Below are positions 6,021 to 51,517 of a DNA stretch of 64,000 nucleotides, one piece after another. The notes under the pieces were generated by a model, which worked only from the letters and a program-made list of their open reading frames with translations, did no database searches and was not told the DNA's origin. Within the stretch, counting starts at the first letter, position 1; every line of letters begins with the position of its first letter. Origin of the DNA: Candidatus Poribacteria bacterium (GTDB lineage: Bacteria > Poribacteria > WGA-4E > PCPOR2b); NCBI GenBank assembly GCA_963665285.1, contig OY762266.1, forward strand, positions 2,676,156 to 2,740,155, in the 5' to 3' direction. The position numbers were made by a program, and so were the translations under genes.

Positions 6021-7283
6021 TTAGTCTCTCAGATCTAAACAGACTATCTCTTGGTGGTTCCGCAGGTAAAGTTTGCCGCCAGATAGCGTGGGAGCAGTCC
6101 AGCACCGCCCAGAAAGGACCTGCGTCTGTGCAACTTCGCGGTACGCTTCCGGGGTCGATTCAACGAGTGCGAGGTTCCCCTGCTCACCGAGAACAATGAG
6201 ATGGTCATCGGCATAGATGACTGTGCCTTGACCGAATCCGCGGGTCTTCCACTTTTCCTCGCCTGTGTCAGCGTTGACACACTTAAAGATGGTGTTTGAG
6301 AAACCATAGATGTAACCTTCATGAAGTACGGTTGTGGAAAAGCCATTAATCATCGTATGACTTCGCCACACCTCTTCAACGCGTATATCGTCATCTACCC
6401 CGACAATGCGTAGCGCAACCCCGGCATCACCACTACGCGAAGAGATAAAAACCTTATCAGGTGAGATGAACACCGGCGTTACACGATTGTCGCTATTTCG
6501 CCCACCATACCACGGATAACGCCAGTATACGCTCCCATCTTCCGGCGAAACAGCGAGGAGTTCATCCCGCGCGAAAAAGAGTGCCTGTCGGACACCGTTG
6601 ACGGTCACAAGAATTGGGGAGGAGTAGCTGGAAGGAGAAGTCGGCACTCCCCAAATACGTTCCCCGGTCCCTTTGTTAAAGGCGACAATGGCATTGTCGT
6701 TTGCACCACCGACCTCAACGAGCAAACGGTCATCCTCAACGGCGGGCGATGTCGAAAAACCCCAACGCGGCATTGAGCTCGAAAACGCTTTTGTGAAATC
6801 GTGACCCCAGAGCTCTTTCCCCGTATCTGCGTTGAGTGCGACTAACCGACCAAAAGCACTCAAGACATAAACTGTATCGCCATCAATCGTTGGTGTCGAG
6901 CGCGGTCCGTTTCCGCCCTGACGTTCCGCATAAAACCAATCGTCAAGATACCGCCAAAGTTCTTTTCCGGTTTCGGCATCGAGACATACGACAACCTCGT
7001 CCTCCCCTTTGGCGAACATGGTATAGGCACGTCCGTTTGCAACTGAGATCCCTGAAAAACCGTCGCCAAGCGGGATTCGCCACAACTCTTTTGGTCCCGC
7101 CTTGGACCACGCCTTGAGGATATCCGTTTCGAGAGATATTCCATCCCGATTCGCGCCTCGCCATTGATGCCACTCCGTTTGAACTGCCGCTTCGTGTTTT
7201 TCCGCTCCGACAATACTACTGCTCATAAGTATAATAGTGACATATAAAAATATGTTTGCTGAACGGTTAAATCTTCGTATCAT
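6021..7283 (-). CDS. PQQ-like beta-propeller repeat protein (BamB-like fold), exported
   Basis: Signal peptide. Repeated motifs (G.vy..s..g.l.alda.tGkelW) are typical of PQQ_2/PQQ_3 propellers. Confidence 0.8.
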   Translation of the reverse strand: MIRRFNRSANIFLYVTIILMSSSIVGAEKHEAAVQTEWHQWRGANRDGISLETDILKAWSKAGPKELWRIPLGDGFSGISVANGRAYTMFAKGEDEVVVCLDAETGKELWRYLDDWFYAERQGGNGPRSTPTIDGDTVYVLSAFGRLVALNADTGKELWGHDFTKAFSSSMPRWGFSTSPAVEDDRLLVEVGGANDNAIVAFNKGTGERIWGVPTSPSSYSSPILVTVNGVRQALFFARDELLAVSPEDGSVYWRYPWYGGRNSDNRVTPVFISPDKVFISSRSGDAGVALRIVGVDDDIRVEEVWRSHTMINGFSTTVLHEGYIYGFSNTIFKCVNADTGEEKWKTRGFGQGTVIYADDHLIVLGEQGNLALVESTPEAYREVAQTQVLSGRCWTAPTLSGGKLYLRNHQEIVCLDLRD

Positions 7284-7379
7284 GTTATCTCCTCAATGTG
7301 AATTTAGGATCTTTAAGTGGCACAGCTTTGAATGCAAATTGCGGATTTCAAACGTCTGGTGCATAGCATAGATTCCCGA

Positions 7380-7895
7380 TTATCCGCCCAGACCGCCAAA
7401 CCTACCACCACCTCCACCGCGTCTGCGACCACCGCCAAATCCGCCCTGTCGTCCCATTTCGGGTAATTTTAGTTCGGGCAGTTTGATATCGGTAAATTTC
7501 TCTTTCTGTTCTTCGTTGAGAACTTCGTGAATTTCTGCAACTAAGGTTTCAATCTGTTTTTGGAAAGCTGCGCGCTGCTGATAGAACGCCTGCATTTGAT
7601 TCTGAGAACCACCACGCCTCCCGCCGCTCCCGCGGCTACCAAAGCCCCCACCGCTGCGCATCTGATTCCGTCTCTCCGCGAACCCAGCTTCCAACGTCTC
7701 CTTCTCTAATTCATAATCCTCGACAATCTCATCAATCCGTTGCACCTTGGATTGTACTACCCTGCGCTGAGTTTCTGAGAGATTTAAGACGCTTGAAGTT
7801 TTTTCAATATCAAGCAACTTTGTGCCTCCACACGCAGATATGGCGAATATCATGAGGACAAAGATAAATCCGCTGAACAATGTTTGGAGGTTCAT
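7380..7895 (-). CDS. Periplasmic Spy/CpxP-like (LTxxQ-type) lipoprotein with RGG/GGF tail
   Basis: I chose the ATG at 7895, which has a GAGGGAG SD 6 nt upstream. The ORF-track start at 7964 has none. Lipobox-like ISACGG, LSETQ and LNEEQKEKF helices, and a Gly/Arg-rich C-terminus. Confidence 0.55.
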   Translation of the reverse strand: MNLQTLFSGFIFVLMIFAISACGGTKLLDIEKTSSVLNLSETQRRVVQSKVQRIDEIVEDYELEKETLEAGFAERRNQMRSGGGFGSRGSGGRRGGSQNQMQAFYQQRAAFQKQIETLVAEIHEVLNEEQKEKFTDIKLPELKLPEMGRQGGFGGGRRRGGGGGRFGGLGG

Positions 7896-7999
7896 TGGTA
7901 TCTCCCTCAACCTTAGGAGTGTTATGTTCAAGGAGAAGCGGCTAAAGGGAAGGTGCATCTCCACTGTCCCCTTAGCCGCTTCCTCAAATCGCCATACTA

Positions 8000-8614
8000 T
8001 TAATTACCTTGTGGCCTATCCGGTCGATTACCGCGACGACCCTCTCCGCCTCCCGTTCGTCCCCGACGACCGCCAAATCCGCCAAATCCACCATCATTGT
8101 TGACGATGCCGGCAATGGTCAACTGCGCTTCTTGACGCACAGTTAGCAGTTCAACGAGCTCCTTTTCCAATGTTTCAGCTGTTGCCTTCTGTACAGCCTG
8201 CTGCGCTTTGAAAGTTTTCAGTGCAGTCTTGATTTGCTTGCTATCTCCACTATCAACCGATGTGCGCAGGGCTTGTGTAAATGGGCGCAACTCTTGGCGC
8301 TGTTGCAGGCGATGCTGTGCAATGGCTTTGATTTTCGGCACGAGAATAGTAGCTTCTTCATCAGAAAGGTTCAAACCCTCAATAGCGCGTTCGGTTTGTC
8401 GTTCTGCCATCTGCGCGGGATCAAATTGTCCCCTGCGCCCCTCGCCTCGTTCCCCACGTCTCTGTTGCTGAAGATCGGAACGATCGGGACGTGTATCCTC
8501 TTGCGCTGAAATGAAATATGCACTTGACAGTACAAGACCGATGACAAATATGGCTACGAGTGAACGATTCAATTTAGGGCTTGATAGGTTCGGTTTCTGG
8601 AAAGTTAAAAACAT
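8000..8614 (-). CDS. Periplasmic Spy/CpxP-like helical protein with RGG/GGF tail
   Basis: GGAGGG SD. Signal peptide, LNLSDEE... helical repeats and a C-terminal GGFGGFGGRRGRTGGGEGRRG. Paralogous in architecture to 7380-7895. Confidence 0.5.
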   Translation of the reverse strand: MFLTFQKPNLSSPKLNRSLVAIFVIGLVLSSAYFISAQEDTRPDRSDLQQQRRGERGEGRRGQFDPAQMAERQTERAIEGLNLSDEEATILVPKIKAIAQHRLQQRQELRPFTQALRTSVDSGDSKQIKTALKTFKAQQAVQKATAETLEKELVELLTVRQEAQLTIAGIVNNDGGFGGFGGRRGRTGGGEGRRGNRPDRPQGN

Positions 8615-40149: not shown

Positions 40150-40177
40150 GGGCACCCCTTGTGGGTGCCCTCTTTTT
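40150..40177 (+). terminator. REP hairpin acting as an intrinsic terminator
   Basis: GGGCACCC-CTTGT-GGGTGCCC followed by TCTTTTT, 53 nt after the 40097 stop. The head here is ATAG instead of GTAG. Confidence 0.6.
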
Positions 40178-40224
40178 GTAGGGATAAAGCCCTAGCGCAA
40201 CAGAAAAAAGACTGGAGGCACAAC

Positions 40225-41052
40225 TTGAGCACAATTGATGCCATGATTCAGAAAGCGTTAGAAGGTAGTGTCGGAAAGGCACAAAAGCTGCCAAACATGG
40301 GGACACCGCACGTTGTGTACAAAACGGTGGCAGTGGACGATTTCGTCCTGACCCTGCAGCCATCTTGTCGGTCAAGGCGAACGGGTAAACCGATACCGGG
40401 TATCAATAAAGGTCACACCCAAGGCGAGCCGAGTCCGTTGCGTTTACTGGTAAACCCTTCCGATTCGGAAGCGGAATCGGTCAAGGCAGACCAAAATGTA
40501 GCAGCATTGAAGGTGTGCATTCCAGAAACCGCCACGTTGACCGAAATCAAGCGGATTCTACATACACGGACGCAAGGCAAGGAATGGGTTGTCCGCACCG
40601 CAGATTTTGCCGGTTGGGATTTGCGGGTAAAACACCGGCGTCTTGTGTATCAGCGCACACAGTGTGACCATTGCCACGGCTATTACGTTCACAGTTACAA
40701 AGGATATTGCCTATTTTGCGACGTGAGAGACAATTGGCACTCGTGCGAACTTTGCGAAACCATGGTTGAAGGTGAATACCGCTATTGTTATTCCCACGGC
40801 AGGGAGGCGTACAGCGAAGATCGGCCCACCAAGCATTTAGGCAGTTACGACACAGTCGGTACACGACGTGTGTGGCGCCACACGATAATTTCCCCAGAGA
40901 TGCGACAGTGGTTTGAATGGCGGCGCAGGTTGAGGGAGGGCAGCAACACGGGCTCAGTCGGGCAGCCGACGTTACCGCAGAAAACAGAGGAGATCAACAC
41001 GGCTGAAGTGGATGCTCTGATAGCTGAGATGGAAAAGATATTGAAGGAGTAG
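40225..41052 (+). CDS. Hypothetical protein with a Cys/His-rich zinc-finger-like cluster
   Basis: TTG 40225 with a GGAGG SD 6 nt upstream. The ORF-track GTG at 40159 lies inside the REP hairpin. Motif QCDHCHG...YCLFCD...HSCELCE...YCYSHG. Confidence 0.5.
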   Translation: MSTIDAMIQKALEGSVGKAQKLPNMGTPHVVYKTVAVDDFVLTLQPSCRSRRTGKPIPGINKGHTQGEPSPLRLLVNPSDSEAESVKADQNVAALKVCIPETATLTEIKRILHTRTQGKEWVVRTADFAGWDLRVKHRRLVYQRTQCDHCHGYYVHSYKGYCLFCDVRDNWHSCELCETMVEGEYRYCYSHGREAYSEDRPTKHLGSYDTVGTRRVWRHTIISPEMRQWFEWRRRLREGSNTGSVGQPTLPQKTEEINTAEVDALIAEMEKILKE

Positions 41053-41917: not shown

Positions 41918-42667
41918 ATGGACAACCTCAAAAACGGTAAAGCACCGGTAGCTCTGCTAAAAGACAGACAGATATTGCCCCTTACACAAGAACAGGCATG
42001 GGCAGCATCGCTTTGGGACAAAAAAGACAAAGAGGAAATCGCCTCCGCCATCGGCGTACCACCTGAAATCCTTACTGAGTGGGAGAACCAACCGCTTTTT
42101 ATAGCGGAGATAGCCGATCTCAGCGCGGAGTTCGAGGCGGAAATCGAAGAAAAACAGGCCGCCGCACTCGTCTTTGACAATTCCTCGTATGCCGCAGCCG
42201 AAGCCACAATTGGGTTGGAAGAAGGCACAATAATGGAGTGGGCACAAGACGAGGAAAGCCTGTTTAATGAACTACTCGATCAGATGAAACGTGAAGTCGC
42301 AAACCAAATAAAGAAAGATCCCAATCCCGAAGGCTTGAAAAATCCCGATCCCGAAGACTTGAATGAAGATCAGATACGAGCTATACCGCTCATTATCGAA
42401 GGTAAAACCGATGCCCAAGTCGGCGAGGCAATCGGCAAAAGCAGAGAAACAATCAACCGATGGCGCAACCAAAACAAAGATTTTATCAAGGAATTAAAAA
42501 AAGCCCGTGATGCGTATCTCGATTCTCAAATCATCGCACTTTCCGCAACCGCGCGAAAGGCAATCACCGTCCTAGAGAATCTGCTCGATAGTGAAGACGA
42601 AAAAATCAGGACGCGAGTCGCAATCCATCTACTCAGGGCAACAGCATTACCACAACGAATAAAGTGA
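41918..42667 (+). CDS. Multi-HTH protein, phage terminase small subunit-like
   Basis: GAGGAG SD. Three homeodomain-like HTH units (e.g. IIEGKTDAQVGEAIGKSRETINRWRNQNKDF) and a helical tail LENLLDSEDEKIRTRVAIHLL. Confidence 0.45.
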   Translation: MDNLKNGKAPVALLKDRQILPLTQEQAWAASLWDKKDKEEIASAIGVPPEILTEWENQPLFIAEIADLSAEFEAEIEEKQAAALVFDNSSYAAAEATIGLEEGTIMEWAQDEESLFNELLDQMKREVANQIKKDPNPEGLKNPDPEDLNEDQIRAIPLIIEGKTDAQVGEAIGKSRETINRWRNQNKDFIKELKKARDAYLDSQIIALSATARKAITVLENLLDSEDEKIRTRVAIHLLRATALPQRIK

Positions 42668-43055: not shown

Positions 43056-43484
43056 ATGAGACAGATGATAAAATACCGCGATTATCTAATCGAAGAACTT
43101 TCTGACCCCGAGGAGGCAACCGTCTATCTCCAAACCTCTCAAGAAGAATACCAGAAAGACGGTGACACCGTCGCATTTTTGTTAGCACTGCAAAGCATCG
43201 CTGAAGCGCAAGTGGAGAACAACGAACTCCTTTCCCAAGTCTATCTATTGAGTGGCAGAGTCCACCACTCACGAGGGGAGCATGACTGGGCGATTGAAGA
43301 CTACGACACAGTGATAAAACTGGCTAATACAGTGATAGAAACGGATCCCAATAATGTTGAAGCCTATATCCGTCGTGGCATAGCTTGCTGCCACAAAGGT
43401 GAGCATGACCGTGCTATTGGAGACCTTACCAAAGCGATAGAATTGAAACCCAATTATGCCGGCCCTATTACGATTGAGGTGTAG
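43056..43484 (+). CDS. Truncated paralog of the 48422 TPR protein (antidote-like N-domain plus about 2 TPRs)
   Basis: MRQMIKYRDYLIEELSDPEEATVYLQ...FLLALQSIAEAQ resembles the N-terminal part of HigA-type addiction-module antidote proteins. About 330 nt are roughly 80-85% identical by eye to 48590-48910. It ends after two TPR units. Confidence 0.6.
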   Translation: MRQMIKYRDYLIEELSDPEEATVYLQTSQEEYQKDGDTVAFLLALQSIAEAQVENNELLSQVYLLSGRVHHSRGEHDWAIEDYDTVIKLANTVIETDPNNVEAYIRRGIACCHKGEHDRAIGDLTKAIELKPNYAGPITIEV

Positions 43485-43535
43485 CTTAAATGTCTCAATG
43501 AGATTATCTTAAAACGGCTCAAGGAAGCAATTCAA

Positions 43536-43679
43536 GTGGCAAGAGAAAGGATCATCAAATACCCACCTAAACGAAGTAGACTCAAAAGAAGTGAGGTTAA
43601 ACGAGTAGCAGAGAGGGTTGTCCATGGCACGCGCGACGGTGGAGAGGCAGAACAGACGCGCCCACCGAAAAGAGGATAA
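43536..43679 (+). pseudogene. Short ORF homologous to the first ~37 codons of the 48422 TPR gene (gene-start relic)
   Basis: VARERIIKYPPKRSRLKRSEVKRVAERVVHGTRDGGE... aligns with MARERIVKDTPKRGKLTERQIQRAVEKVIYSRLGGGE... Its stop lies 3 nt before the XRE ATG. Confidence 0.5.
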
Positions 43680-43682
43680 ATC

Positions 43683-43958
43683 ATGGCAGACTATACCCCC
43701 AGTTCGGGAAACGTTTTTAAGGATTTGGAGCTTCCCTCACCCAATGAAAGGTTGGCAAAAGCGAAACTGGCATATAAGATCAACCGCTTGATTGCCGATC
43801 AGGAAATGATTCAAAAGGACGCTGCGGATTTTTTGGGAATAAGTCAATCGAAAATGACGGCCCTGAGAAACGGTGGATTGAAGAATTTTACCATTGACCA
43901 TCTGGTTTCTCTGCTGGGAAAGCTGGATCCTCATATTGAATTCAGCACCCAAGACTAA
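43683..43958 (+). CDS. XRE-family HTH transcriptional regulator (antitoxin-like)
   Basis: SGNVFKDLELP...KA.LA..I...I.....Q.DAADFLGISQSKMTALRNG.LKNFTIDHLVSLL..L, the classic short XRE/HigA-type protein. AGAGGA SD. Confidence 0.85.
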   Translation: MADYTPSSGNVFKDLELPSPNERLAKAKLAYKINRLIADQEMIQKDAADFLGISQSKMTALRNGGLKNFTIDHLVSLLGKLDPHIEFSTQD

Positions 43959-44058
43959 TTAAACGGAAAATTAATAATCAGATTTTTACCCGTTTCATCG
44001 CCAATGTCGATATTCAAGCACGAAACGCGGATTCTAAAATGCAAGCGAGGAGATAGTT

Positions 44059-45861
44059 GTGGCACTACATTACGAAAATTTGGATGAAAACACACGTTCG
44101 TTTATGTTGAGTGAGGTTGATTTAGACTTATCTCATGAGAAGCTTTATATGAGCCCACGCCTTAATGAGCCCGGAGAGCGAAATTATGTATCTCTTCTTA
44201 AGGAAGCTATAGAACACCATGATGACGCGTGGCTTGCCCAACAATTACGCAGTCACAGTTATATGAAAGAAAACGTACCACGTAAAAAGAAGGGTGATTT
44301 CACAACAGTTAGGGTTCCTAAGAATGCCCCTGATACTCTTAGTGAAGGAGAGTTTAACCGATATTATGCAAGAGGCGTATGTCTTCGTGTAATAGAGGAA
44401 GGCGTGGATCAAGTTGAGGTATGTCCCGGAAAACCAGTAAGTAGACTTCGACCAAAAGCTAAAGCTATCTTGGGAAAAAAGCTGCCTGCTGAAACACTGC
44501 TGAAAGATTTGAGGGAATCTAGCAGTGTGGAGTCCGCTCTTGGTTTGCAACGCGGATTAAATCCAAGCTTAACGGTTCGCATGGAAAGGGTCGAAGGTAT
44601 TACCAAGATAGTGGTGAGCAGTTTCAAGTCACTCGCGGAAAAGTGCAAAATAGACATTCGTCCGCTGACGATTATTGCCGGAGCAAATAGTTCAGGAAAA
44701 TCAAGCATCATGCAGCCGCTCCTGATGCTCAAGCAGACGCTGGAGGCACCGTATGATCCGGGACCGTTGTTGATTGATGGACCAATCGTTCAATTCACAT
44801 TAGCGGAGCAATTTTTATCCAAGTTAAGCGGTAAAAAAGGTGCGGAACGTTTTCAGATCCAGATTGAGACTGGTGAGTCTTATTCGGTGGGGACGACTTT
44901 TGGAAAGGGGCAAAACGGGGTTGAACTTATCGAAATGACAGTAGAAAGAAAGTCATTGGATCTACGCCGGCGTTTTACTTTATATCCTGAAATGCTCCCT
45001 GAAGAAATTAAGTCTTTGGCTGACAAAGATCCGAGGTTTAAGGATTTGGGCGAGGATTACGATGTCGTGAGGCGCTCACATTGTTTTTTGGAGTTAGAGT
45101 CTCAAGATGGTCATAAGGGCTTAAACTTTACCCATGAACTTGCGTTCCATATCGTTAGCAGCATTCACCTTCCCGGGTTACGAGGCAATCCAGAACGCAC
45201 ATACAAACTAACCAGCACTGGTCCCCGATATCCTGGCACATTTGAAAACTACGCTGCGAATATCATTCACGAGTGGCAGGAAACCGCAGATAAACGTCTG
45301 AAAACATTAGCTGATGGCCTTCATACACTTGGACTGACAGGGCAGGTCGGCACCAAAAAAATCGGCGACACCCGCATCGAACTTCAAGTCGGTCGCCTTC
45401 CCGGGGATAGAACTAGCACAAAAGATATGGTCAGCATCGCCGATGTGGGATTCGGTGTGTCCCAAGTCTTGCCTGTTTTAGTTGCTCTGATCGTCGCGAA
45501 GTCGGGACAATTGGTCTATCTCGAACAGCCGGAGCTGCACCTCCATCCCCGCGCACAGGTCGCGTTGGCGCAAGAATTGGCAGCTGCGGCGAAACGTGGT
45601 GTCCGTGTTGTCGCGGAAACGCACAGTTCGCTGCTAATTCGGGCAATTCAAGCACTTATTGCCGAGAGAAACCTCCCGCCAGCGTTGGTGAGGTTGCATT
45701 GGTTCAGCCGAGATGACAGCGGGGCTACCGAAATCGTCCCCGCTGAATTAGACGAAGTGGGGGCTTATGGGGACTGGCCAGCAGATTTTGATGATGTTGA
45801 CTTGAAGGCACAGAGCCGTTATATAAAGGCATCTCGATTGCGTCTGGCTGAAAGGGCATGA
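44059..45861 (+). CDS. ABC/SMC-like AAA ATPase (AAA_21/DUF3696-like) with an unrecognised ~190-aa N-terminal domain
   Basis: GTG start with a GAGGAG SD. Walker A IIAGANSSGKSS, Walker B LVYLEQPELHLHP and H-loop AETHS. The C-terminal tail LHWFSRDDSG...GDWPADFDDV resembles DUF3696. Confidence 0.75.
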   Translation: MALHYENLDENTRSFMLSEVDLDLSHEKLYMSPRLNEPGERNYVSLLKEAIEHHDDAWLAQQLRSHSYMKENVPRKKKGDFTTVRVPKNAPDTLSEGEFNRYYARGVCLRVIEEGVDQVEVCPGKPVSRLRPKAKAILGKKLPAETLLKDLRESSSVESALGLQRGLNPSLTVRMERVEGITKIVVSSFKSLAEKCKIDIRPLTIIAGANSSGKSSIMQPLLMLKQTLEAPYDPGPLLIDGPIVQFTLAEQFLSKLSGKKGAERFQIQIETGESYSVGTTFGKGQNGVELIEMTVERKSLDLRRRFTLYPEMLPEEIKSLADKDPRFKDLGEDYDVVRRSHCFLELESQDGHKGLNFTHELAFHIVSSIHLPGLRGNPERTYKLTSTGPRYPGTFENYAANIIHEWQETADKRLKTLADGLHTLGLTGQVGTKKIGDTRIELQVGRLPGDRTSTKDMVSIADVGFGVSQVLPVLVALIVAKSGQLVYLEQPELHLHPRAQVALAQELAAAAKRGVRVVAETHSSLLIRAIQALIAERNLPPALVRLHWFSRDDSGATEIVPAELDEVGAYGDWPADFDDVDLKAQSRYIKASRLRLAERA

Positions 45862-45862
45862 T

Positions 45863-46408
45863 ATGCAGTCAAGCAATTCCAAGCAGCTCGTTGTGGATGC
45901 ATCAGTTGCCGGTGCTGCCGGTGGCGAAGGGGCAACGGCTTTAGTATCAATCAACTGCACGGAATTTCTCTTAATTTTTTGGGACAAATGTCTGCATCAC
46001 GTCGTGATGACACCAGAACTTTACAAGGAATGGGATGAACATCAATCGGACTTTGCTGCTAGATGGCTGGCATCAATGATTTCCACAGGGAGATATTGTG
46101 AGGTCGAATCTTCTGAGAACCAAGTGTTGTGGACCAAAATCGAAGACGCAGCAGAGCAAGAAAATCAGATTCCAGTAATGCGGAAGGATTTTCACCTTCT
46201 TGAAGCAGCACGGATAAGTGACCAGACGATCATTTCGCTTGAAAAAAGGGTCCGGCGGCATTTCGCCTATGCCGCTCAGCATGTTGATGAAATCCAAAAC
46301 ATTGTTTGGGTGAATCCTAAAAAAGAAAAAGAAGAACCACTTGTTTGGCTTCAAAACGGTGCACCACCGGAAGATCATCGTAGGCTTCGCGCTTGGCGGA
46401 TTGTTTAG
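45863..46408 (+). CDS. PIN-like domain protein (tentative nuclease)
   Basis: The ATG is 1 nt after the ATPase stop. N-terminal LVVDASVA and DFHLLEAARISDQTIISLE resemble the first and last acidic-residue strands of PIN domains. The assignment is tentative. Confidence 0.4.
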   Translation: MQSSNSKQLVVDASVAGAAGGEGATALVSINCTEFLLIFWDKCLHHVVMTPELYKEWDEHQSDFAARWLASMISTGRYCEVESSENQVLWTKIEDAAEQENQIPVMRKDFHLLEAARISDQTIISLEKRVRRHFAYAAQHVDEIQNIVWVNPKKEKEEPLVWLQNGAPPEDHRRLRAWRIV

Positions 46409-46438
46409 TTCGACGCAGCATCTACATGAGACTCGGAA

Positions 46439-47077
46439 GTGACGCATCCAATTGAACGTATCACACAAAGGGATCCCAATTACCCAGCGCAGTTGCGAGG
46501 GTATTTGAAAGCAGAAGCCCCAGAAACTATTTGGGCGCGGGGAAATACCGCCCTATTGACGGATCGAGGTGCCAACTTAAACGGAGACATTTGGGCACTT
46601 TTCTGTTCTAGCAGATGTCCCGGTCAGATTATTTTGAAAGCGCATGAATTGGCTCAACAATTTCGGGAATCAAGAACACCTACCATCGGAGGGTATCATT
46701 CGCCGGTTGAAAAGGAATGTCTTCGCGTCCTGCTGCGCGGTTCACAACCGATTATCCTATGTCCCGCTCGGAGTATCGAAAATATGCGGCTGAGTCCAGC
46801 GTGGAAAGGGGGGTTAGCGGAAGGGCGTCTGTTACTCCTGTCTATCTTCGACAGCAAGCATCGGCGATCGACCGCAGCATTGGCGAACCAACGCAACGTA
46901 TTTGTCGCGGCACTTGCGGACAAGATATGTATCGCCCATGCCTCGGAGGGTAGCAAGACGCTGCAATTCGCACAGCAGGTATCGGAATGGGGCAAACCTC
47001 TTTTCACCTTTGACACCCCGGCAAACAGATCGCTTTTTCAATGCGGGGCGCAGCGGATAGAGGATGCTTGTACCTGA
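46439..47077 (+). CDS. Stand-alone DprA-like Rossmann (SLOG superfamily) protein
   Basis: DPNYPAQL...PETIWARGN..LL, then CSSRCPG, IGGYHSPVEKECLRVLL, QPIILCPARSI, ANQRNVFVAALADKICIAHASEGSKTL and GKPLFTF follow the DprA core order. It lacks the DprA SAM and DML1-like domains. GTG is the only in-frame start. Confidence 0.65.
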   Translation: MTHPIERITQRDPNYPAQLRGYLKAEAPETIWARGNTALLTDRGANLNGDIWALFCSSRCPGQIILKAHELAQQFRESRTPTIGGYHSPVEKECLRVLLRGSQPIILCPARSIENMRLSPAWKGGLAEGRLLLLSIFDSKHRRSTAALANQRNVFVAALADKICIAHASEGSKTLQFAQQVSEWGKPLFTFDTPANRSLFQCGAQRIEDACT

Positions 47078-47189
47078 AACATATAGAACTTACGCACATG
47101 GTCAAAAAATAGGTTATAATAACGCAAGTTGCTAGAGCGTATTGACATTGGTTCATGTTAAGAAAGCGTGCAACAGCAACCGAATCTTC

Positions 47190-47246
47190 GTAGGGGTTGG
47201 GTCCCCCAACCCTTACGGACTACGGGCGGGGAGACCCCGCCCCTAC
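47190..47246. repeat. Pair of REP-like hairpins
   Basis: GTAGGGGTTGGGTCCCCCAACCCTTAC (47190-47216) and GGGCGGGGAGACCCCGCCCCTAC (47225-47246, inverted). They are embedded between imperfect ~30-nt inverted arms at 47141-47172 and 47264-47294. Confidence 0.7.
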
Positions 47247-47314: not shown

Positions 47315-47412
47315 AATCGATGCTAATATGGCAGGCCGGTAAACCTTAATCGAAGTTAATATGGCATCAGCAAACCTTAATCGATGCCAATATGGCAGGT
47401 CAGCAAACCGTT
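47315..47412 (+). repeat. Three tandem 31-34-bp direct repeats (iteron-like)
   Basis: AATCGATGCTAATATGGCAGGCCGGTAAACCTT / AATCGAAGTTAATATGGCATCAGCAAACCTT / AATCGATGCCAATATGGCAGGTCAGCAAACCGTT. Confidence 0.8.
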
Positions 47413-47653: not shown

Positions 47654-47752
47654 CTGCGTAAGTCCCATGATTTAAAGAATTTTACGATTGATTATCTGAT
47701 TTCTCTGTTTAGAAGGCTGAATTCAGATTTGAAGAAACTACAGAATGAATGA
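47654..47752 (+). pseudogene. 3' relic of a second XRE-family HTH gene
   Basis: Encodes ...LRKSHDLKNFTIDYLISLFRRLNSDLKKLQNE*, matching LRNGGLKNFTIDHLVSLLGKLDPHIE of the 43683 XRE protein. The upstream HTH part is not recognisable. Confidence 0.55.
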
Positions 47753-47769
47753 AACTGACTTAGGAAATC

Positions 47770-48420
47770 ATGCAATCACCCCACTATAATGACAATGTTT
47801 TTCTCAATTGTCCATTTGATTCAGCGTATAAGCAGTTGTTTGATGCAATGGTGTTTGCCGTACATGATTGTGGTTTTATCGCCCGCTGTGCTCTTGAAGA
47901 AGGAGATGCAAGCCAAGTCCGGATTGATAAAATTTATGACATCATCGCGGACTGTCGTTATGGAATTCATGATATATCAAGAACGGAATTAGATGCAACT
48001 TCAAGTCTCCCTCGATTTAATATGCCTTTGGAATTGGGAGTTTTTCTTGGGGCAAAGAAATTTGGCATAGACGAACAAAAAAGGAAAAACTGCCTTATAC
48101 TGGACAAAGAACAGTACCGGTATCAACAGTTTATCTCAGATATTGCCGGGCAAGATGTTGAGGCGCATAACAACAATCCTGAAGCAATCGTAACAGTCGT
48201 GCGGAATTGGCTCCGTACTGCATCGGAATGTGAAACAATCCCAAGTGGAAGCATCATTTGGGAACATTACCAAGAGTTTATGGGAGATTTGCCTCAACTA
48301 GCTCAAGAATATCAATTAAAGGTTGAAGAACTAATTTTTAATGATTATACTTCGGTGGTTACGAGATGGTTAAGAAATAGACAAATTGCTTATCGCAACC
48401 TAGTTCGAGGAGGGAATTAG
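47770..48420 (+). CDS. TIR-like / nucleoside 2-deoxyribosyltransferase-like Rossmannoid domain protein
   Basis: N-terminal VFLNCPFD....LF.A.VF....CGF, then IHDISR and PRFNMPLELGVFLG. The N(V/M)xxELG plus a buried N-terminal strand recalls the TIR-like (PF10137-type) and NDT-like families. The C-terminal ~70 aa are unassigned. Confidence 0.45.
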   Translation: MQSPHYNDNVFLNCPFDSAYKQLFDAMVFAVHDCGFIARCALEEGDASQVRIDKIYDIIADCRYGIHDISRTELDATSSLPRFNMPLELGVFLGAKKFGIDEQKRKNCLILDKEQYRYQQFISDIAGQDVEAHNNNPEAIVTVVRNWLRTASECETIPSGSIIWEHYQEFMGDLPQLAQEYQLKVEELIFNDYTSVVTRWLRNRQIAYRNLVRGGN

Positions 48421-48421
48421 A

Positions 48422-50371
48422 ATGGCAAGAGAAAGAATCGTCAAAGACACCCCCAAACGAGGAAAACTCACAGAAAGACAAATTCAACGGGCAGTGGAGA
48501 AGGTTATTTATAGTAGACTCGGCGGTGGAGAAGTGGGGCGGACACACCACATCGAAAGACTTGCCGATCCTGAAAATGCGGTTGCCTACCTCCAAAACTC
48601 TCAAGAAGAATACCGAAAAAACGATGACGCGGTCGCATTTCTGTTAGCACTCCAAACCATCGCCGAAGCGCAGGCAGGGAACGACGGACTTGTTTCCCAA
48701 GTCTATTTATTAAGCGGCGACGTTCACCGCTCACGAGAGGAACATGACTTGGCGATTGAAGACTATAGCACCGTGATAAAATTGACTAACACAGTGATAG
48801 AAATGGATCCAAAAAATGTTGAAGCCTATTCCCGCCGTGGCATAGCTTACCATCACAAAGGTGAGTATGAATCTGCCATTGAAAACTTTACCAAAGCGAT
48901 AAAACTAGATCCAAGCATACCCCAACTCTATTTAGCACGAGGCATAACTTACAATCATGAAGGTGAATATGACTCCGCCATTGAGGATGCCACTAAAGCA
49001 TTAGAATTGAAGCTTGATAGTGCCGAGGCCTATAAGCACCGTGGTCTGGCTTACCAGAGCAGAGGTGATTGTGACCGCAGTAAGAGCGATTATGACCGCG
49101 CCATCGCAGACCTTACCAAAGCGATAGACCTAGCCCCTAATGATACCAATGTGTATTGTGGTCGTGGACATGCTTACCAGAGCAGAGGTGATTATGACCG
49201 CAGTAAGAGCGATTATGACCGCGCCATCGCAGACTTTACCAAAGCGATAGACCTAGCCCCTAATGATGCTAGAGCTTATAGCGGTCGCGGTTATGCCCAT
49301 CAAAGCAAAGGCGATTATGACGAGGCCATCAAAGATTGTACAAAAGCAGTAGCACAAGCCCCTAATGATGCTAAAGTTTATAATCATCGCGGAGTTGTCT
49401 ATTATCACAAAGGCGATTATGACGAGGCCATAACAGACTTTGATAGAGCAATACAACTCAACCCTGATTATGCCCAAGCCTATAATAGTCGTGCGGCTAT
49501 CTATTGTGAAAATGGCAAAGTTGATCTTGGCATCCTGGACCTTAATAGGGCGATACAAGTCAACTCGAATTATGCCCAATCCTATAGTAATCGTGGTATG
49601 GCTTACGGGGTCAAAGGCGAGTATGAGCATGCCATTGAAGACTTTACCAAAGTGATAGAATTGAATCCCAATGATGCTGATGCCTATTACAATCGCGGTG
49701 TAGCTTTCAGGATCAAGGGTAAGTATGACCATGCCATCGCAGATTGTACCAAAGCGATAGCACTGAATCCCAATGATGTCGATGTGTACGACCATCGCGG
49801 AGTGATCTACTATTACAAAGGTGAGTATGATTATGCTATTTTAGACTTTACCAAGGCGATAACACTGAATCCCAATTACGTCAACGTCTATTACAACCGT
49901 GGTCTAACTTATGTGTTCAAAGGCGAGTATAACCACGCCATCGCAGACTATACCCAAGCGATACAACTCAAATCAGATTATGCCAATGCTTATTACAATC
50001 GCGGTGTAATTTACTGCAAGAAAAACGAGTATGAATACGCTATTGAGGACTTCACCAAGGTAATAGAATTGAATCCCAATGATGCTGATGCCTATTGCAA
50101 TCGTGGCATAGCTTATAGAGCCAAGGGGGAGGTTAACCGTGCCATCGCAAACTATAATATGGCAATACGTCTAAACCCCGATGATGCGGATGCTTATAGC
50201 AATCGCTGGGAGGCGTCGTCACCCCCGGAAGCACACGAAGAAGCCAAATCAGATCAAGTGATTTCCAGAGACATGGGAAGAGATATTGTCACTTCATTTC
50301 ATAGTGAGTATAGAAACAGCCCAACTGAAAATCTACTAGAAGAGATTACCTTAAAGTCGATGGCCGCGTAG
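48422..50371 (+). CDS. Large TPR-repeat protein with an antidote-like N-terminal region
   Basis: The ATG is 1 nt after the upstream TAG. Residues about 48-95 (LADPENAVAYLQNSQEEY...FLLALQTIAEAQ) resemble the HigA-type antidote N-domain. About 14 TPR units follow (AY..RG.AY...G.YD.AI.DF.KAI.L.PN). Confidence 0.8.
   Translation: MARERIVKDTPKRGKLTERQIQRAVEKVIYSRLGGGEVGRTHHIERLADPENAVAYLQNSQEEYRKNDDAVAFLLALQTIAEAQAGNDGLVSQVYLLSGDVHRSREEHDLAIEDYSTVIKLTNTVIEMDPKNVEAYSRRGIAYHHKGEYESAIENFTKAIKLDPSIPQLYLARGITYNHEGEYDSAIEDATKALELKLDSAEAYKHRGLAYQSRGDCDRSKSDYDRAIADLTKAIDLAPNDTNVYCGRGHAYQSRGDYDRSKSDYDRAIADFTKAIDLAPNDARAYSGRGYAHQSKGDYDEAIKDCTKAVAQAPNDAKVYNHRGVVYYHKGDYDEAITDFDRAIQLNPDYAQAYNSRAAIYCENGKVDLGILDLNRAIQVNSNYAQSYSNRGMAYGVKGEYEHAIEDFTKVIELNPNDADAYYNRGVAFRIKGKYDHAIADCTKAIALNPNDVDVYDHRGVIYYYKGEYDYAILDFTKAITLNPNYVNVYYNRGLTYVFKGEYNHAIADYTQAIQLKSDYANAYYNRGVIYCKKNEYEYAIEDFTKVIELNPNDADAYCNRGIAYRAKGEVNRAIANYNMAIRLNPDDADAYSNRWEASSPPEAHEEAKSDQVISRDMGRDIVTSFHSEYRNSPTENLLEEITLKSMAA
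49049..49267 (+). repeat. Recent internal tandem duplication (123-nt period) within the TPR gene
   Basis: 49049-49144 and 49172-49267 differ at only 2 positions by eye. Both encode AYQSRGD(C/Y)DRSKSDYDRAIAD(L/F)TKAIDLAPND. Confidence 0.8.
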
Positions 50372-50428: not shown

Positions 50429-51517
50429 ATGAAAGCGTGGCGTTTCTATGGATTTAACGATATGCGGTTGGACGAGGTCCCCGACCCAGTTCGTCGTGAG
50501 GGGCATGTAATCGCGGAGATTCTCTGTGTGCAACCCTCCGTCACCGAAGCACAACTGGCTTACGGGATTCCGACCCTCGCTTACGAGCAGATTAAATACC
50601 GATTGGAGACCGAGGCACCGATACGGCTATTCGGGCACGAGTTCTGCGCCCGAATCGTGGAATCTGATGCGGATTCCCAATTCCGTCCGGGCGACCGTGT
50701 AGCAGCCCGCGCCAAGCTGCCCTGTGGCGAATGCTCTCTCTGCCTATCAGAGCGTGGGAACGACTGTCGGCGGGGTCCGATCATTGGATTTCAGCTGCCC
50801 GGCTGCTTCTCCGAGTTCGCCGTCCTACCCGAAATCGCTTTAACGAAAGTGGACGACCGAATTTCTGACAGCGAGGCGGCATGTCTGCAATCGCTCTCCG
50901 ACAGCCTTGCGGCGGTGGATACGGCAGAGATAAATATTGGGGATACCGTCGCTATCTTTGGTCAAGGCAGCATGGGATTGGAGTGTATGCAGGTCGCTCG
51001 TGCGAGCGGTGCGGGTCAGTTGATCACCGTAGATGTCCGAGAGGAAGCGTGCCAAGTCTCTAGGGAGTTGGGTGCTGACCACAGCATCGACGCGAGCCGA
51101 GACGATCCCGTTGAGGTGATTCAGGCGTTGACGGACGGAAACGGTGCCGATGTCGTTTTTGAATGCGCGGGTGGCAGTCCAAAGCAGGGTTTGTCGGGAA
51201 CGAAAACGCTTACACAAGCCATCGCAGCTGTCCGATCGGGCGGCAAATTAAACATCGTTTCGTGGTTTGGGCATCCGATGGAACTTGATGTTGACGCTCT
51301 ACGAGAACGGAGCCTCCGATGTCTGTTCCCGGACATCAGCACACTGGCACACTTGGAACACACGGTGCGGTTGGTCGCCTCCGGACGGATTCGATTGAAA
51401 CCGACCATCAAGCACATTTTATCTGGCATTGACTCTGTTCCCAAAGCCTTCGAGATTACCGCAAACAAAGGCAAATACGGTGCTATCAACCCGGCACAGG
51501 TGATAATGCACGAGTGA
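50429..51517 (+). CDS. Zinc-dependent medium-chain alcohol/polyol dehydrogenase
   Basis: GHEFCARI, the structural-zinc Cys cluster CGECSLCLSERGNDC, and Rossmann GQGSMGL. Confidence 0.85.
   Translation: MKAWRFYGFNDMRLDEVPDPVRREGHVIAEILCVQPSVTEAQLAYGIPTLAYEQIKYRLETEAPIRLFGHEFCARIVESDADSQFRPGDRVAARAKLPCGECSLCLSERGNDCRRGPIIGFQLPGCFSEFAVLPEIALTKVDDRISDSEAACLQSLSDSLAAVDTAEINIGDTVAIFGQGSMGLECMQVARASGAGQLITVDVREEACQVSRELGADHSIDASRDDPVEVIQALTDGNGADVVFECAGGSPKQGLSGTKTLTQAIAAVRSGGKLNIVSWFGHPMELDVDALRERSLRCLFPDISTLAHLEHTVRLVASGRIRLKPTIKHILSGIDSVPKAFEITANKGKYGAINPAQVIMHE

Follow-up and report, generated by a model that had tools for sequence, protein, structure and literature searches.

Enzymes of the TIR type have a central place in immunity, in plants and animals as in bacteria, and in every such system the key question is how they become activated. 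In the TIR-STING effector SfSTING, R78 and N80 make the phosphate and ribose contacts, E84 is the catalytic glutamate, and D110 comes from the opposing mate of the dimer (PMC9402430). DUF2188 has been linked to the fold of the HicB antitoxin (PMC13621843), and an earlier paper on regulators of cyclic-oligonucleotide-based antiphage signaling systems (CBASS) described operons of DUF2188 and 'hypothetical proteins' that stand under CapH/CapP-like control. Here we analyze a two-gene locus in a 64,000-nucleotide (nt) stretch of a Candidatus Poribacteria genome (contig OY762266.1, positions 2,676,156 to 2,740,155 of the forward strand; the whole stretch is called the window below). The locus encodes a 216-amino-acid (aa) TIR-like protein and, directly after it, a 649-aa open reading frame (ORF) with tetratricopeptide repeats (TPRs). 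Candidatus Poribacteria are sponge symbionts. An earlier, sequence-only reading had taken the two genes as a TIR-like effector paired with a TPR sensor. The locus turns out to be less exotic than that, with no TPR sensor at the level of the family, and more interesting as a member of a large TIR-like family that is often multi-copy in Poribacteria, is unrecognised by four libraries, and has a very short conserved partner peptide.

The TIR-like protein and its family

The anatomy of the locus can be given with great confidence:

47770..48420, + strand: gene of the 216-aa TIR-like protein; TAG stop at 48418-48420
48409..48413, + strand: GGAGG Shine-Dalgarno sequence of the 649-aa ORF, read directly, within the 3' end of the TIR-like gene and 8 nt before the ATG
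48422..50371, + strand: 649-aa ORF with TPRs, from the ORF map; no internal stops

A single base (48421) lies between the TAG of the 216-aa ORF and the ATG of the 649-aa ORF at 48422. The coordinates, stop codon, 1-nt spacing and start codon of the sequence-only reading agree with the ORF map and the raw sequence, and the latter also confirms the physical coupling of the two ORFs.

The 216-aa protein has no match in Pfam, NCBIfam, PADLOC or PHROGs. A word-indexed search found at least 7,973 homologues at E<=1e-3 among the matches listed, and the ORF is therefore not a chance one. An exhaustive search of 50%-identity representatives gave 2,853 family clusters at E<=1e-3 and 473 at E<=1e-30. Most members are stand-alone proteins of 200-215 aa. 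The family spans many phyla and is present on plasmids and viral contigs; cultured-phage genomes gave no match. Close homologues of the 216-aa protein are named Candidatus Poribacteria, a family-profile search (A1) of a database of 5.8 billion sequences returned close Poribacteria relatives only, and two Poribacteria chromosomes carry two copies each. A Pfam scan of ten selected longer, multi-domain representatives found a canonical TIR_2 domain N-terminal to the TIR-like domain in five. These natural fusions (P0130, P0204, P0219, P0258, and P0259) are tandems of two different TIR types.

Across 65 diverse members F11, N13, R51, D68, S70, N84, E88, G90, S123, D124, and G127 are invariant. The motifs VFLNCPFD and PRFNMPLELGVFLG, to which the sequence-only reading had drawn attention, are both present in the 216-aa protein and form the most conserved blocks of the family alignment. 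An AlphaFold2 model made with the 65-member alignment as input (predicted local distance difference test, pLDDT, 94.4; predicted template modeling score 0.91) has a beta-alpha core with strands at residues 9-13, 37-39, 64-68, and 107-112. This TIR-like core (about aa 9-130) is followed by three long helices (137-152, 160-180, and 190-213), which make up a family-specific C-terminal domain (aa 137-213) for which a profile (A4) found no related PDB structure by sequence.

Foldseek searches of the PDB with the model ranked the TIR domain of SfSTING (7un8) and the TIR-APAZ protein of SPARTA at the top, followed by nucleoside deoxyribosyltransferases (NDTs) and by plant and MyD88 TIRs. The matches have E values of 1e-3 to 3e-2 and TMq of 0.4-0.5; the TIR matches include 7un8, 8oz6, and 8i87, and the NDT matches, 7o62 and 8qc0, have E values of 5e-3 to 1e-2. 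Among the viral models of BFVD the first match is a Cap12/Pycsar TIR protein, and viral NDTs and CMP hydrolases match as well. By sequence, PF10137 (CAP12-PCTIR_TIR) has sub-threshold matches in 27 of the 65 members (best E 4.2e-4), with none in the 216-aa protein itself even at E<=10, and the only notable PDB matches of the family profile are the Cap12 chains 7un8 and 7un9 (E 0.07). In the profile alignment to 7un8, which is weak (E 0.07; chain offset +8) but specific, R78, N80, E84, and D110 of SfSTING align to R82, N84, E88, and D124, which fall in PRFNMPLELG (the first three) and SDIAGQD (D124). N84, E88, and D124 are invariant in both family alignments, and R82 is nearly invariant in one and invariant in the other. 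The TIR/NDT-like fold anticipated from the letters alone is thus upheld by the model, the Foldseek matches, the sub-threshold PF10137 matches and the conserved motif of the catalytic glutamate.

As far as profiles and predicted structure can tell, the family is a new, distant branch of TIR-like N-glycosidases. There is a good chance that the 216-aa protein is an active N-glycosidase; it probably hydrolyses nicotinamide adenine dinucleotide (NAD+) and probably depends on oligomerisation. The enzyme would cleave NAD+ (or the N-glycosidic bond of a nucleotide) when its subunits pair or oligomerise. E88 would be catalytic, R82 and N84 would contact the ribose and phosphate, and D124 would complete the active site of the neighboring subunit, as in SfSTING.

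A housekeeping role in nucleotide salvage, as a nucleoside 2-deoxyribosyltransferase or a nucleotide hydrolase with incidental neighbors, has to be considered, given that the structural matches include NDTs (7o62 and 8qc0) as well as viral NDTs and CMP hydrolases, that a catalytic glutamate at the position of E88 is common to NDTs, and that some family loci sit among housekeeping genes. We regard it as highly improbable. None of the 65 members matches an NDT family of Pfam; the sequence-only reading had named placement in a housekeeping family as a result that would speak against it, and no such placement was found. The family is scattered unevenly over the phyla, and Poribacteria genomes have several copies of it; copies are also found on plasmids and viral contigs and, in Poribacteria, in defense islands. 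The tight link to a fast-evolving small partner, described below, is not expected of a salvage enzyme.

A short conserved partner

The real conserved partner, which the sequence-only reading missed, carries a motif of about 28 residues that is encoded beside the gene in most relatives. Neighbor clustering covered 126 family loci from genomes, metagenomes and viral contigs. At the other Poribacteria loci the gene directly 3' of the TIR-like gene is not a TPR gene; it is an ORF of 60-110 aa that begins MAR(E/G/R)R(I/T)VK..PKRGKLT...Q..RAVEKV... A conserved linkage to TPR genes had been expected, and the neighborhood analysis did not find it, the downstream gene in Poribacteria relatives being this small partner. 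Outside Poribacteria the only neighbor that recurs is a small co-directional ORF that directly precedes the TIR-like gene; the 125 flanking genes there fall into 112 Pfam families, and two of them have TPRs. The upstream small ORFs and the Poribacteria downstream ORF share the one motif (examples are RIVKDTPKRGKLTERQIQRAVEKVIY, RTIQSAPKRGNIPLAAIEKAVKAVL, and PRIQDSPKKSRIAGRIGRAVGKMAL). It consists of an extended basic stretch and then an amphipathic helix, and follows the pattern [RK]x[IV]xxxPxxGx(L/V/F)(S/T)xxxIxxAVxxV. The gaps between enzyme and partner genes are -8 to +24 nt in most tabulated pairs.

A hidden Markov model (HMM) of the motif was run over the six frames of 127 loci, 1.5 million residues in all. 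Its seeds came from about 15 loci, so the remaining matches are independent. At E<=1 there were 72 matches within 400 nt of a TIR-like gene and on its strand, in 70 loci, and two matches elsewhere, one of them beside a TIR-like gene split by an insertion. At E<=0.01 the motif was positive in 58 of the 118 loci with enough flank, and in most of the remaining loci a small basic ORF upstream carries a degenerate form of the motif. Enzyme and motif divergence are correlated (Mantel r 0.66 overall and 0.57 outside Poribacteria, reached by 0 of 2000 permutations), with the partner evolving faster than the enzyme (mean identity 27% vs. 52%). Natural fusions of motif and enzyme were not found among the top 150 representatives, which have weak internal look-alikes of the motif at the helix at about aa 137-149.

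In almost all relatives the partner is a basic protein of 33-140 aa whose only constant feature is the motif. The remainder may be DUF2188, a YjzC-like module, a TGRF-type motif, alanine/serine-rich repeats, a weakly GIY-YIG-like segment, or a lysine tail only. PHROGs, PADLOC and NCBIfam have no match for the small partner, and the PGAP annotation on Sphingomonas and Rhizobium plasmids calls enzyme and partner as adjacent hypothetical proteins. Pairs on such plasmids lie at NZ_CP117412.1 157837-158644 and at NZ_CP148093.1 364029-365021. When modeled alone, the Poribacteria partner has a pLDDT of 63.9; its basic N-terminus is below 50, residues 18-32 form a helix, and residues 44-79 form a small beta module. 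Loci L016, L018, L019, and L020 (at about 6600-7000), which represent one subgroup of Poribacteria, keep the partner motif and have the GIY-YIG-like segment (YKYHLK...GITNNLDRREKEH...) in place of the C-terminal module; this likeness is supported only by a weak Pfam match to MUG113 (E 0.055).

The association of a TIR-type protein with DUF2188 raises the question of a Thoeris-like pair, in which the TIR-like protein would answer infection by making a signal from NAD, with the small protein beside it as the effector that responds. A 2025 preprint describes a defense island with six ThsB proteins and a putative DUF2188 effector (10.64898/2025.12.03.692087), DUF2188 partners occur in the present family, and some family members are fused to TIR_2. 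However, many partners are only 33-60 aa long, the motif plus a lysine tail, and have no plausible ligand-binding or killing domain. The enzyme matches neither ThsB_TIR nor TIR_2, nor any PADLOC model of Thoeris. The family closest to it is PF10137, of which the known members are effectors that deplete NAD. A Thoeris-like mechanism is therefore judged very unlikely.

Around the Poribacteria copies the cargo is that of a defense island, as the sequence-only reading had supposed. It includes Eco57I-type methylase/restriction proteins, AAA_21 ATPases, an AbiJ_NTD4 protein, a type II Thoeris pair, and regulator pairs of a helix-turn-helix (HTH) protein and an M78 peptidase. Outside Poribacteria a PADLOC scan found no recurrent defense partner among the neighbors, and neither a cyclase nor a CD-NTase is among the 25 most frequent neighbor families listed. 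Regulators upstream of the TIR-like gene are optional, and are either XRE or XRE plus M78 (L004, L005, and L006). The pair of TIR-like and partner genes is autonomous, patchy and mobile in its distribution.

Two arrangements in individual loci can be added. In L003 (3511-4910) a type II Thoeris pair (ThsB_TIR, E 2e-18; ThsA_Macro, E 5e-48) lies about 1 kb upstream of the TIR-like and partner genes. In L004 (4479-5863) and L005 (4582-5768) HTH and IrrE/M78-peptidase genes, a CapH/CapP-like pair, lie directly upstream of the TIR-like gene, an arrangement that parallels the published DUF2188 operons controlled by CapH/CapP.

The chimeric 649-aa ORF and its island

The 649-aa ORF of the window is a chimera of the small partner and a separate TPR protein:

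48422..48550, + strand: part derived from the small partner (aa 1-43); conserved motif of about 28 residues at 48434-48517; motif HMM E 1.6e-12
48551..50371, + strand: TPR-gene part, aa 44-649, with 13-14 TPRs; the join is at residue 12 of the TPR parent

The repeats themselves are as the sequence-only reading had counted them, about 14: Pfam finds 13 TPR_1 and 14 TPR_11 stretches. When the first 110 residues of the ORF were searched against 5.8 billion proteins, the matches fell into two disjoint classes, small proteins of 60-87 aa that match aa 1-43 and TPR proteins that match from aa 44 on. The first 43 residues share 91-97% identity with the N-termini of P0352, P0377, and other separate proteins of 60-87 aa; P0352, which has 83 aa, reads MARERIVKDTPKRGKLTERQIQRAVEKVIYARLGGGEVGQTRHATTIKIGRDVKTGRFI...KKKK. 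In the second class, free-standing TPR proteins beginning MREMRKYRDYLIERLADPEE... (P0326 and P0331) become homologous to the chimera at their residue 12; P0326 (MREMRKYRDYLIERLADPEEAVAYLQ...), for example, aligns from its own residue 12. No protein in this search spans the junction between motif and TPRs (maximum coverage 73%). At the DNA level, homology to a TPR fragment elsewhere in the window (43089-43388) begins exactly at 48551, which is codon 44 (80% over 300 nt). Both parental genes exist separately in L002 and L006, with the order enzyme, 67-aa partner, HI1419-type toxin and 398-aa TPR protein in L002. Judged from these alignments, a deletion fused the partner gene, up to its codon 43, in frame with the TPR gene from codon 12 on. 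The proposed pairing of a TIR-like effector with a TPR sensor thus fails as a property of the family: residues 1-43 are the N-terminus of the partner, the junction is unmatched, and TPRs occur in 2 of 125 flanking genes. Overall, the earlier interpretation is partly supported.

The 398-aa protein of L002 is of the type of the chimera's TPR parent. It follows an HI1419-type RelE/ParE toxin (TIGR02683, E 2e-36; the two span 6858-8362) and so stands in the antitoxin position. A likeness of the N-terminus of the TPR parent to HigA/HI1420-type antitoxins was considered and dropped, there being no match to TIGR02684.

A second strain (L133) bears a chimera with the identical junction, which shows that the chimera is real and not an assembly error. 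Compared with the window, L133 differs at 1 of 651 nt in the enzyme gene and at 10 of 1950 nt in the chimera, whereas in the flanks the alcohol dehydrogenase gene differs at 85 of 1089 nt and the DprA-like gene at 63 of 639 nt (about 90-92% identity). A near-identical cassette within such flanks is a mosaic and indicates that the cassette was exchanged recently between strains.

Whether the chimera is a working partner can be argued from the same data. The motif would then dock an array of 14 TPRs onto the enzyme and create a lineage-specific TPR sensor that has no STAND NTPase. The motif (aa 5-32) is intact, the ORF is free of stops, and a good Shine-Dalgarno sequence and the 1-nt spacing are retained before it. 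The segment of TIR-like gene and TPR chimera is 98.7% identical in the second strain against about 90-92% in the flanks, which suggests recent spread as a unit, and the part of the partner outside the motif is naturally interchangeable, being DUF2188, the GIY-YIG-like segment, or nothing. However, the junction is confined to the window strain and its close relative L133, with no spanning protein among 5.8 billion. Its parents are separate in the relatives L002 and L006, TPR genes flank family members elsewhere in only 2 of 125 cases, and other truncated copies of both parents on the island (43056-43679) show ongoing decay and recombination. The 10 nt differences between the two strains are too few to show purifying selection on the chimera. 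We consider a working TPR partner unlikely, and take the TPR array for a passenger unless evidence to the contrary appears. For annotation the lesson is that the conspicuous pairing with TPRs is a fusion artefact of island turnover, and that small partner ORFs are easily missed.

The other features that bear on the history of the locus are the following:

47672..47752, + strand: final 26 codons and stop of an XRE regulator gene of HTH_37 type (3' remnant)
43683..43958, + strand: intact HTH_37 XRE regulator of cassette 1; Pfam HTH_37 E 6.5e-18; homologous to the remnant at 47672
43536..43679, + strand: second, orphan copy of the small-partner gene, truncated to 47 aa, immediately 5' of the intact XRE; motif at 43548-43625; found by tblastn; motif HMM E 9.3e-9
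43056..43484, + strand: truncated paralogue (142 aa) of the TPR gene; keeps the native N-terminus (MRQMIKYRDYLIEEL...) that is absent from the chimera; direct repeat D4

The frame that ends at 47752 translates as ...LKNFTIDYLISLFRRLNSDLKKLQNE*. It is identical at 11 of 21 aa to the C-terminus of the intact XRE at 43683-43958 (BLASTP, pairwise E 9e-7), with 80% nt identity over 51 bp (direct repeat D5, 43878-43928), and 69% identical over 26 aa to the intact 91-aa XRE of locus L006, which lies directly 5' of the orthologous TIR-like gene. Between the window and L006 nucleotide identity is 82.5% over 103 bp, from the XRE remnant into the start of the TIR-like gene. The BLASTP match to the XRE at 43683 and the match to the XRE of L006 sustain the earlier view that the decayed upstream gene was of the regulator type that heads cassette 1. 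The fragments at 43056-43484 and 43536-43679 look like reciprocal leftovers of both parents of the chimera.

These features lie in an island of low GC content (41.0-50.4 kb; GC 0.40-0.46 vs. 0.50-0.55 in the flanks), bounded by a conserved gene (40159-41052) and the alcohol dehydrogenase gene (50429-51517). Other Poribacteria genomes (L001, L005, and L006) have other cargo between the same two flanks, which indicates that the island is a variable hotspot of integration or recombination. At its left edge a 249-aa protein with an HTH_Tnp_1_2 domain (41918-42667; E 8.6e-12) may be a remnant related to mobility or packaging. Cassette 1 (43683-47077) encodes the HTH_37 XRE, a 600-aa AAA_21 ATPase, a 181-aa protein, and a 212-aa DprA-like protein. 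The ATPase matches NsnB of PADLOC (4e-51) over aa 181-579, beyond a 180-aa N-terminal extension; the DprA-like protein matches PF02481 and, in PADLOC, PsyrA (8e-18); and the 181-aa protein has no matches in the library scans. The set of ATPase, protein of about 181 aa and optional DprA-like protein adjoins the TIR-like and partner genes in five more Poribacteria loci (L001, L002, L003, L006, and L021), and the ATPase group may cooperate with them or be a system of its own. Between the DprA-like gene and the XRE remnant lie 690 bp that contain a 33-bp tandem repeat (47315-47409; 2.9 copies, 81% matches) and two GC-rich, hairpin-like sequences (at about 47185-47245). An Rfam scan of 40-51 kb gave no match.

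Proposed control of the enzyme and comparison with known systems

On balance we favor a model in which the TIR-like N-glycosidase and its regulatory peptide would form an autonomous pair, of a toxin-antitoxin-like or an abortive-infection kind. That the motif partner binds and regulates the enzyme seems rather likely from the linkage and the correlated divergence; that it acts as an inhibitor is put forward tentatively and at somewhat less than even chances. The motif would bind the enzyme and control it, most likely by holding it inactive in the manner of an antitoxin. The antitoxin-like role is favored because minimal partners consist of the motif alone, because DUF2188 partners resemble the HicB antitoxin fold (PMC13621843), and because the module behaves like a toxin-antitoxin cassette. 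The pair moves as a unit, headed by XRE or by XRE and an M78 peptidase in some genomes. The window holds a rearranged version of the module, with XRE cut to 26 codons and the partner fused to the TPR gene but with the motif intact at the N-terminus of the chimera. On the antitoxin model, the presence in two strains of an intact enzyme gene with every catalytic residue implies that the 43 retained residues of the partner still work; alternatively, the enzyme would be harmless unless activated. That 43 residues could suffice is indicated by natural partners as short as 33-48 aa and by Poribacteria variants that are cut short after about residue 45.

Several observations weigh against this model. 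Motif significance is weak in about half of the loci, and in the most distant relatives, which are on viral contigs, the partners have DUF2188 but no clear motif. Whereas type II antitoxins typically bind DNA through a domain of their own, no such domain can be recognised in the partner, and its variable modules (DUF2188, TGRF-type and GIY-YIG-like) suit an adaptor or sensor at least as well as an inhibitor. As for the enzyme, it resembles solved TIRs marginally in sequence (PDB profile E 0.07) and moderately in structure (Foldseek E about 1e-3, TMq about 0.5), and the mapping of active-site residues depends on the weak alignment to 7un8.

Because the extra modules are so varied, a role as adaptor or sensor stays in play. 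In that alternative the motif would be a docking peptide that carries a small nucleic-acid- or ligand-binding module. In its general form, which we think rather improbable, the motif would be a portable peptide that plugs interchangeable sensor modules into a TIR-like NADase through the three-helix domain, the modules being DUF2188, the TGRF-type motif, the GIY-YIG-like segment and, in the window, the 14-repeat TPR array. It is about as doubtful that the fusion created a functional pair of TPR sensor and TIR effector in the window lineage. If docking is true, the pair would represent a previously undescribed 'peptide-adaptor' logic for activating TIR enzymes, and the window would show how a new pair of TPR sensor and TIR effector arises from a gene fusion. 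Should the peptide inhibit or recruit the enzyme, its action would rank among the simplest mechanisms of TIR control known.

The family is not described in Pfam, NCBIfam, PADLOC 2023, PHROGs or the literature searched, and neither the DUF2188 preprint (10.64898/2025.12.03.692087) nor the CBASS-regulator paper describes the enzyme family or the motif. Its best structural and sequence match is to the PF10137 proteins, Cap12/TIR-STING (SfSTING, PDB 7UN8) and PycTIR, with which it shares an R-x-N-x-x-x-E-x-G block and a downstream (S/T)-D-x-x-G block. Unlike those systems it has no fused STING, SAVED or cyclic-nucleotide-binding sensor and no CD-NTase or cyclase among the 25 most frequent neighbor families listed; in their place are a three-helix C-terminal domain of its own and a small peptide partner encoded by a separate gene. 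Evangelion (Eva01, a DUF4062 TIR-like protein with AUX; 10.64898/2026.06.25.731849) is similar in its compact N-terminal TIR-like core and short family-specific C-terminal region, in a conserved aromatic residue in strand 1, in a catalytic glutamate near position 87-88, and in its carriage on mobile elements. Evangelion is a single-gene system, however, whereas the present family has a conserved second gene, and none of 65 members matches DUF4062. Thoeris likewise places a TIR-type protein beside a second gene, and DUF2188 is a neighbor in both, but the 216-aa enzyme is not ThsB-like by PF08937, TIR_2 or PADLOC, and its partners are mostly minimal peptides that lack an effector domain.

In layout the pair resembles RES-Xre (MbcTA) and HicAB-type systems, which also consist of two short co-directional genes with small gaps or overlaps and are sporadic, autonomous and plasmid-borne. 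The TIR-like pair is adjacent, co-directional, tightly spaced, autonomous and mobile, as type II toxin-antitoxin pairs are. An NAD-consuming toxin, as in MbcTA, is predicted here, and the DUF2188 partners resemble the N-domain of HicB (PMC13621843). The differences are a TIR-like fold in place of RES or HicA, a partner that lacks a DNA-binding domain, and a gene order that is reversed in the Poribacteria pairs. We read the locus as a predicted TIR-like NADase module of a known kind with a control partner that appears to be new.

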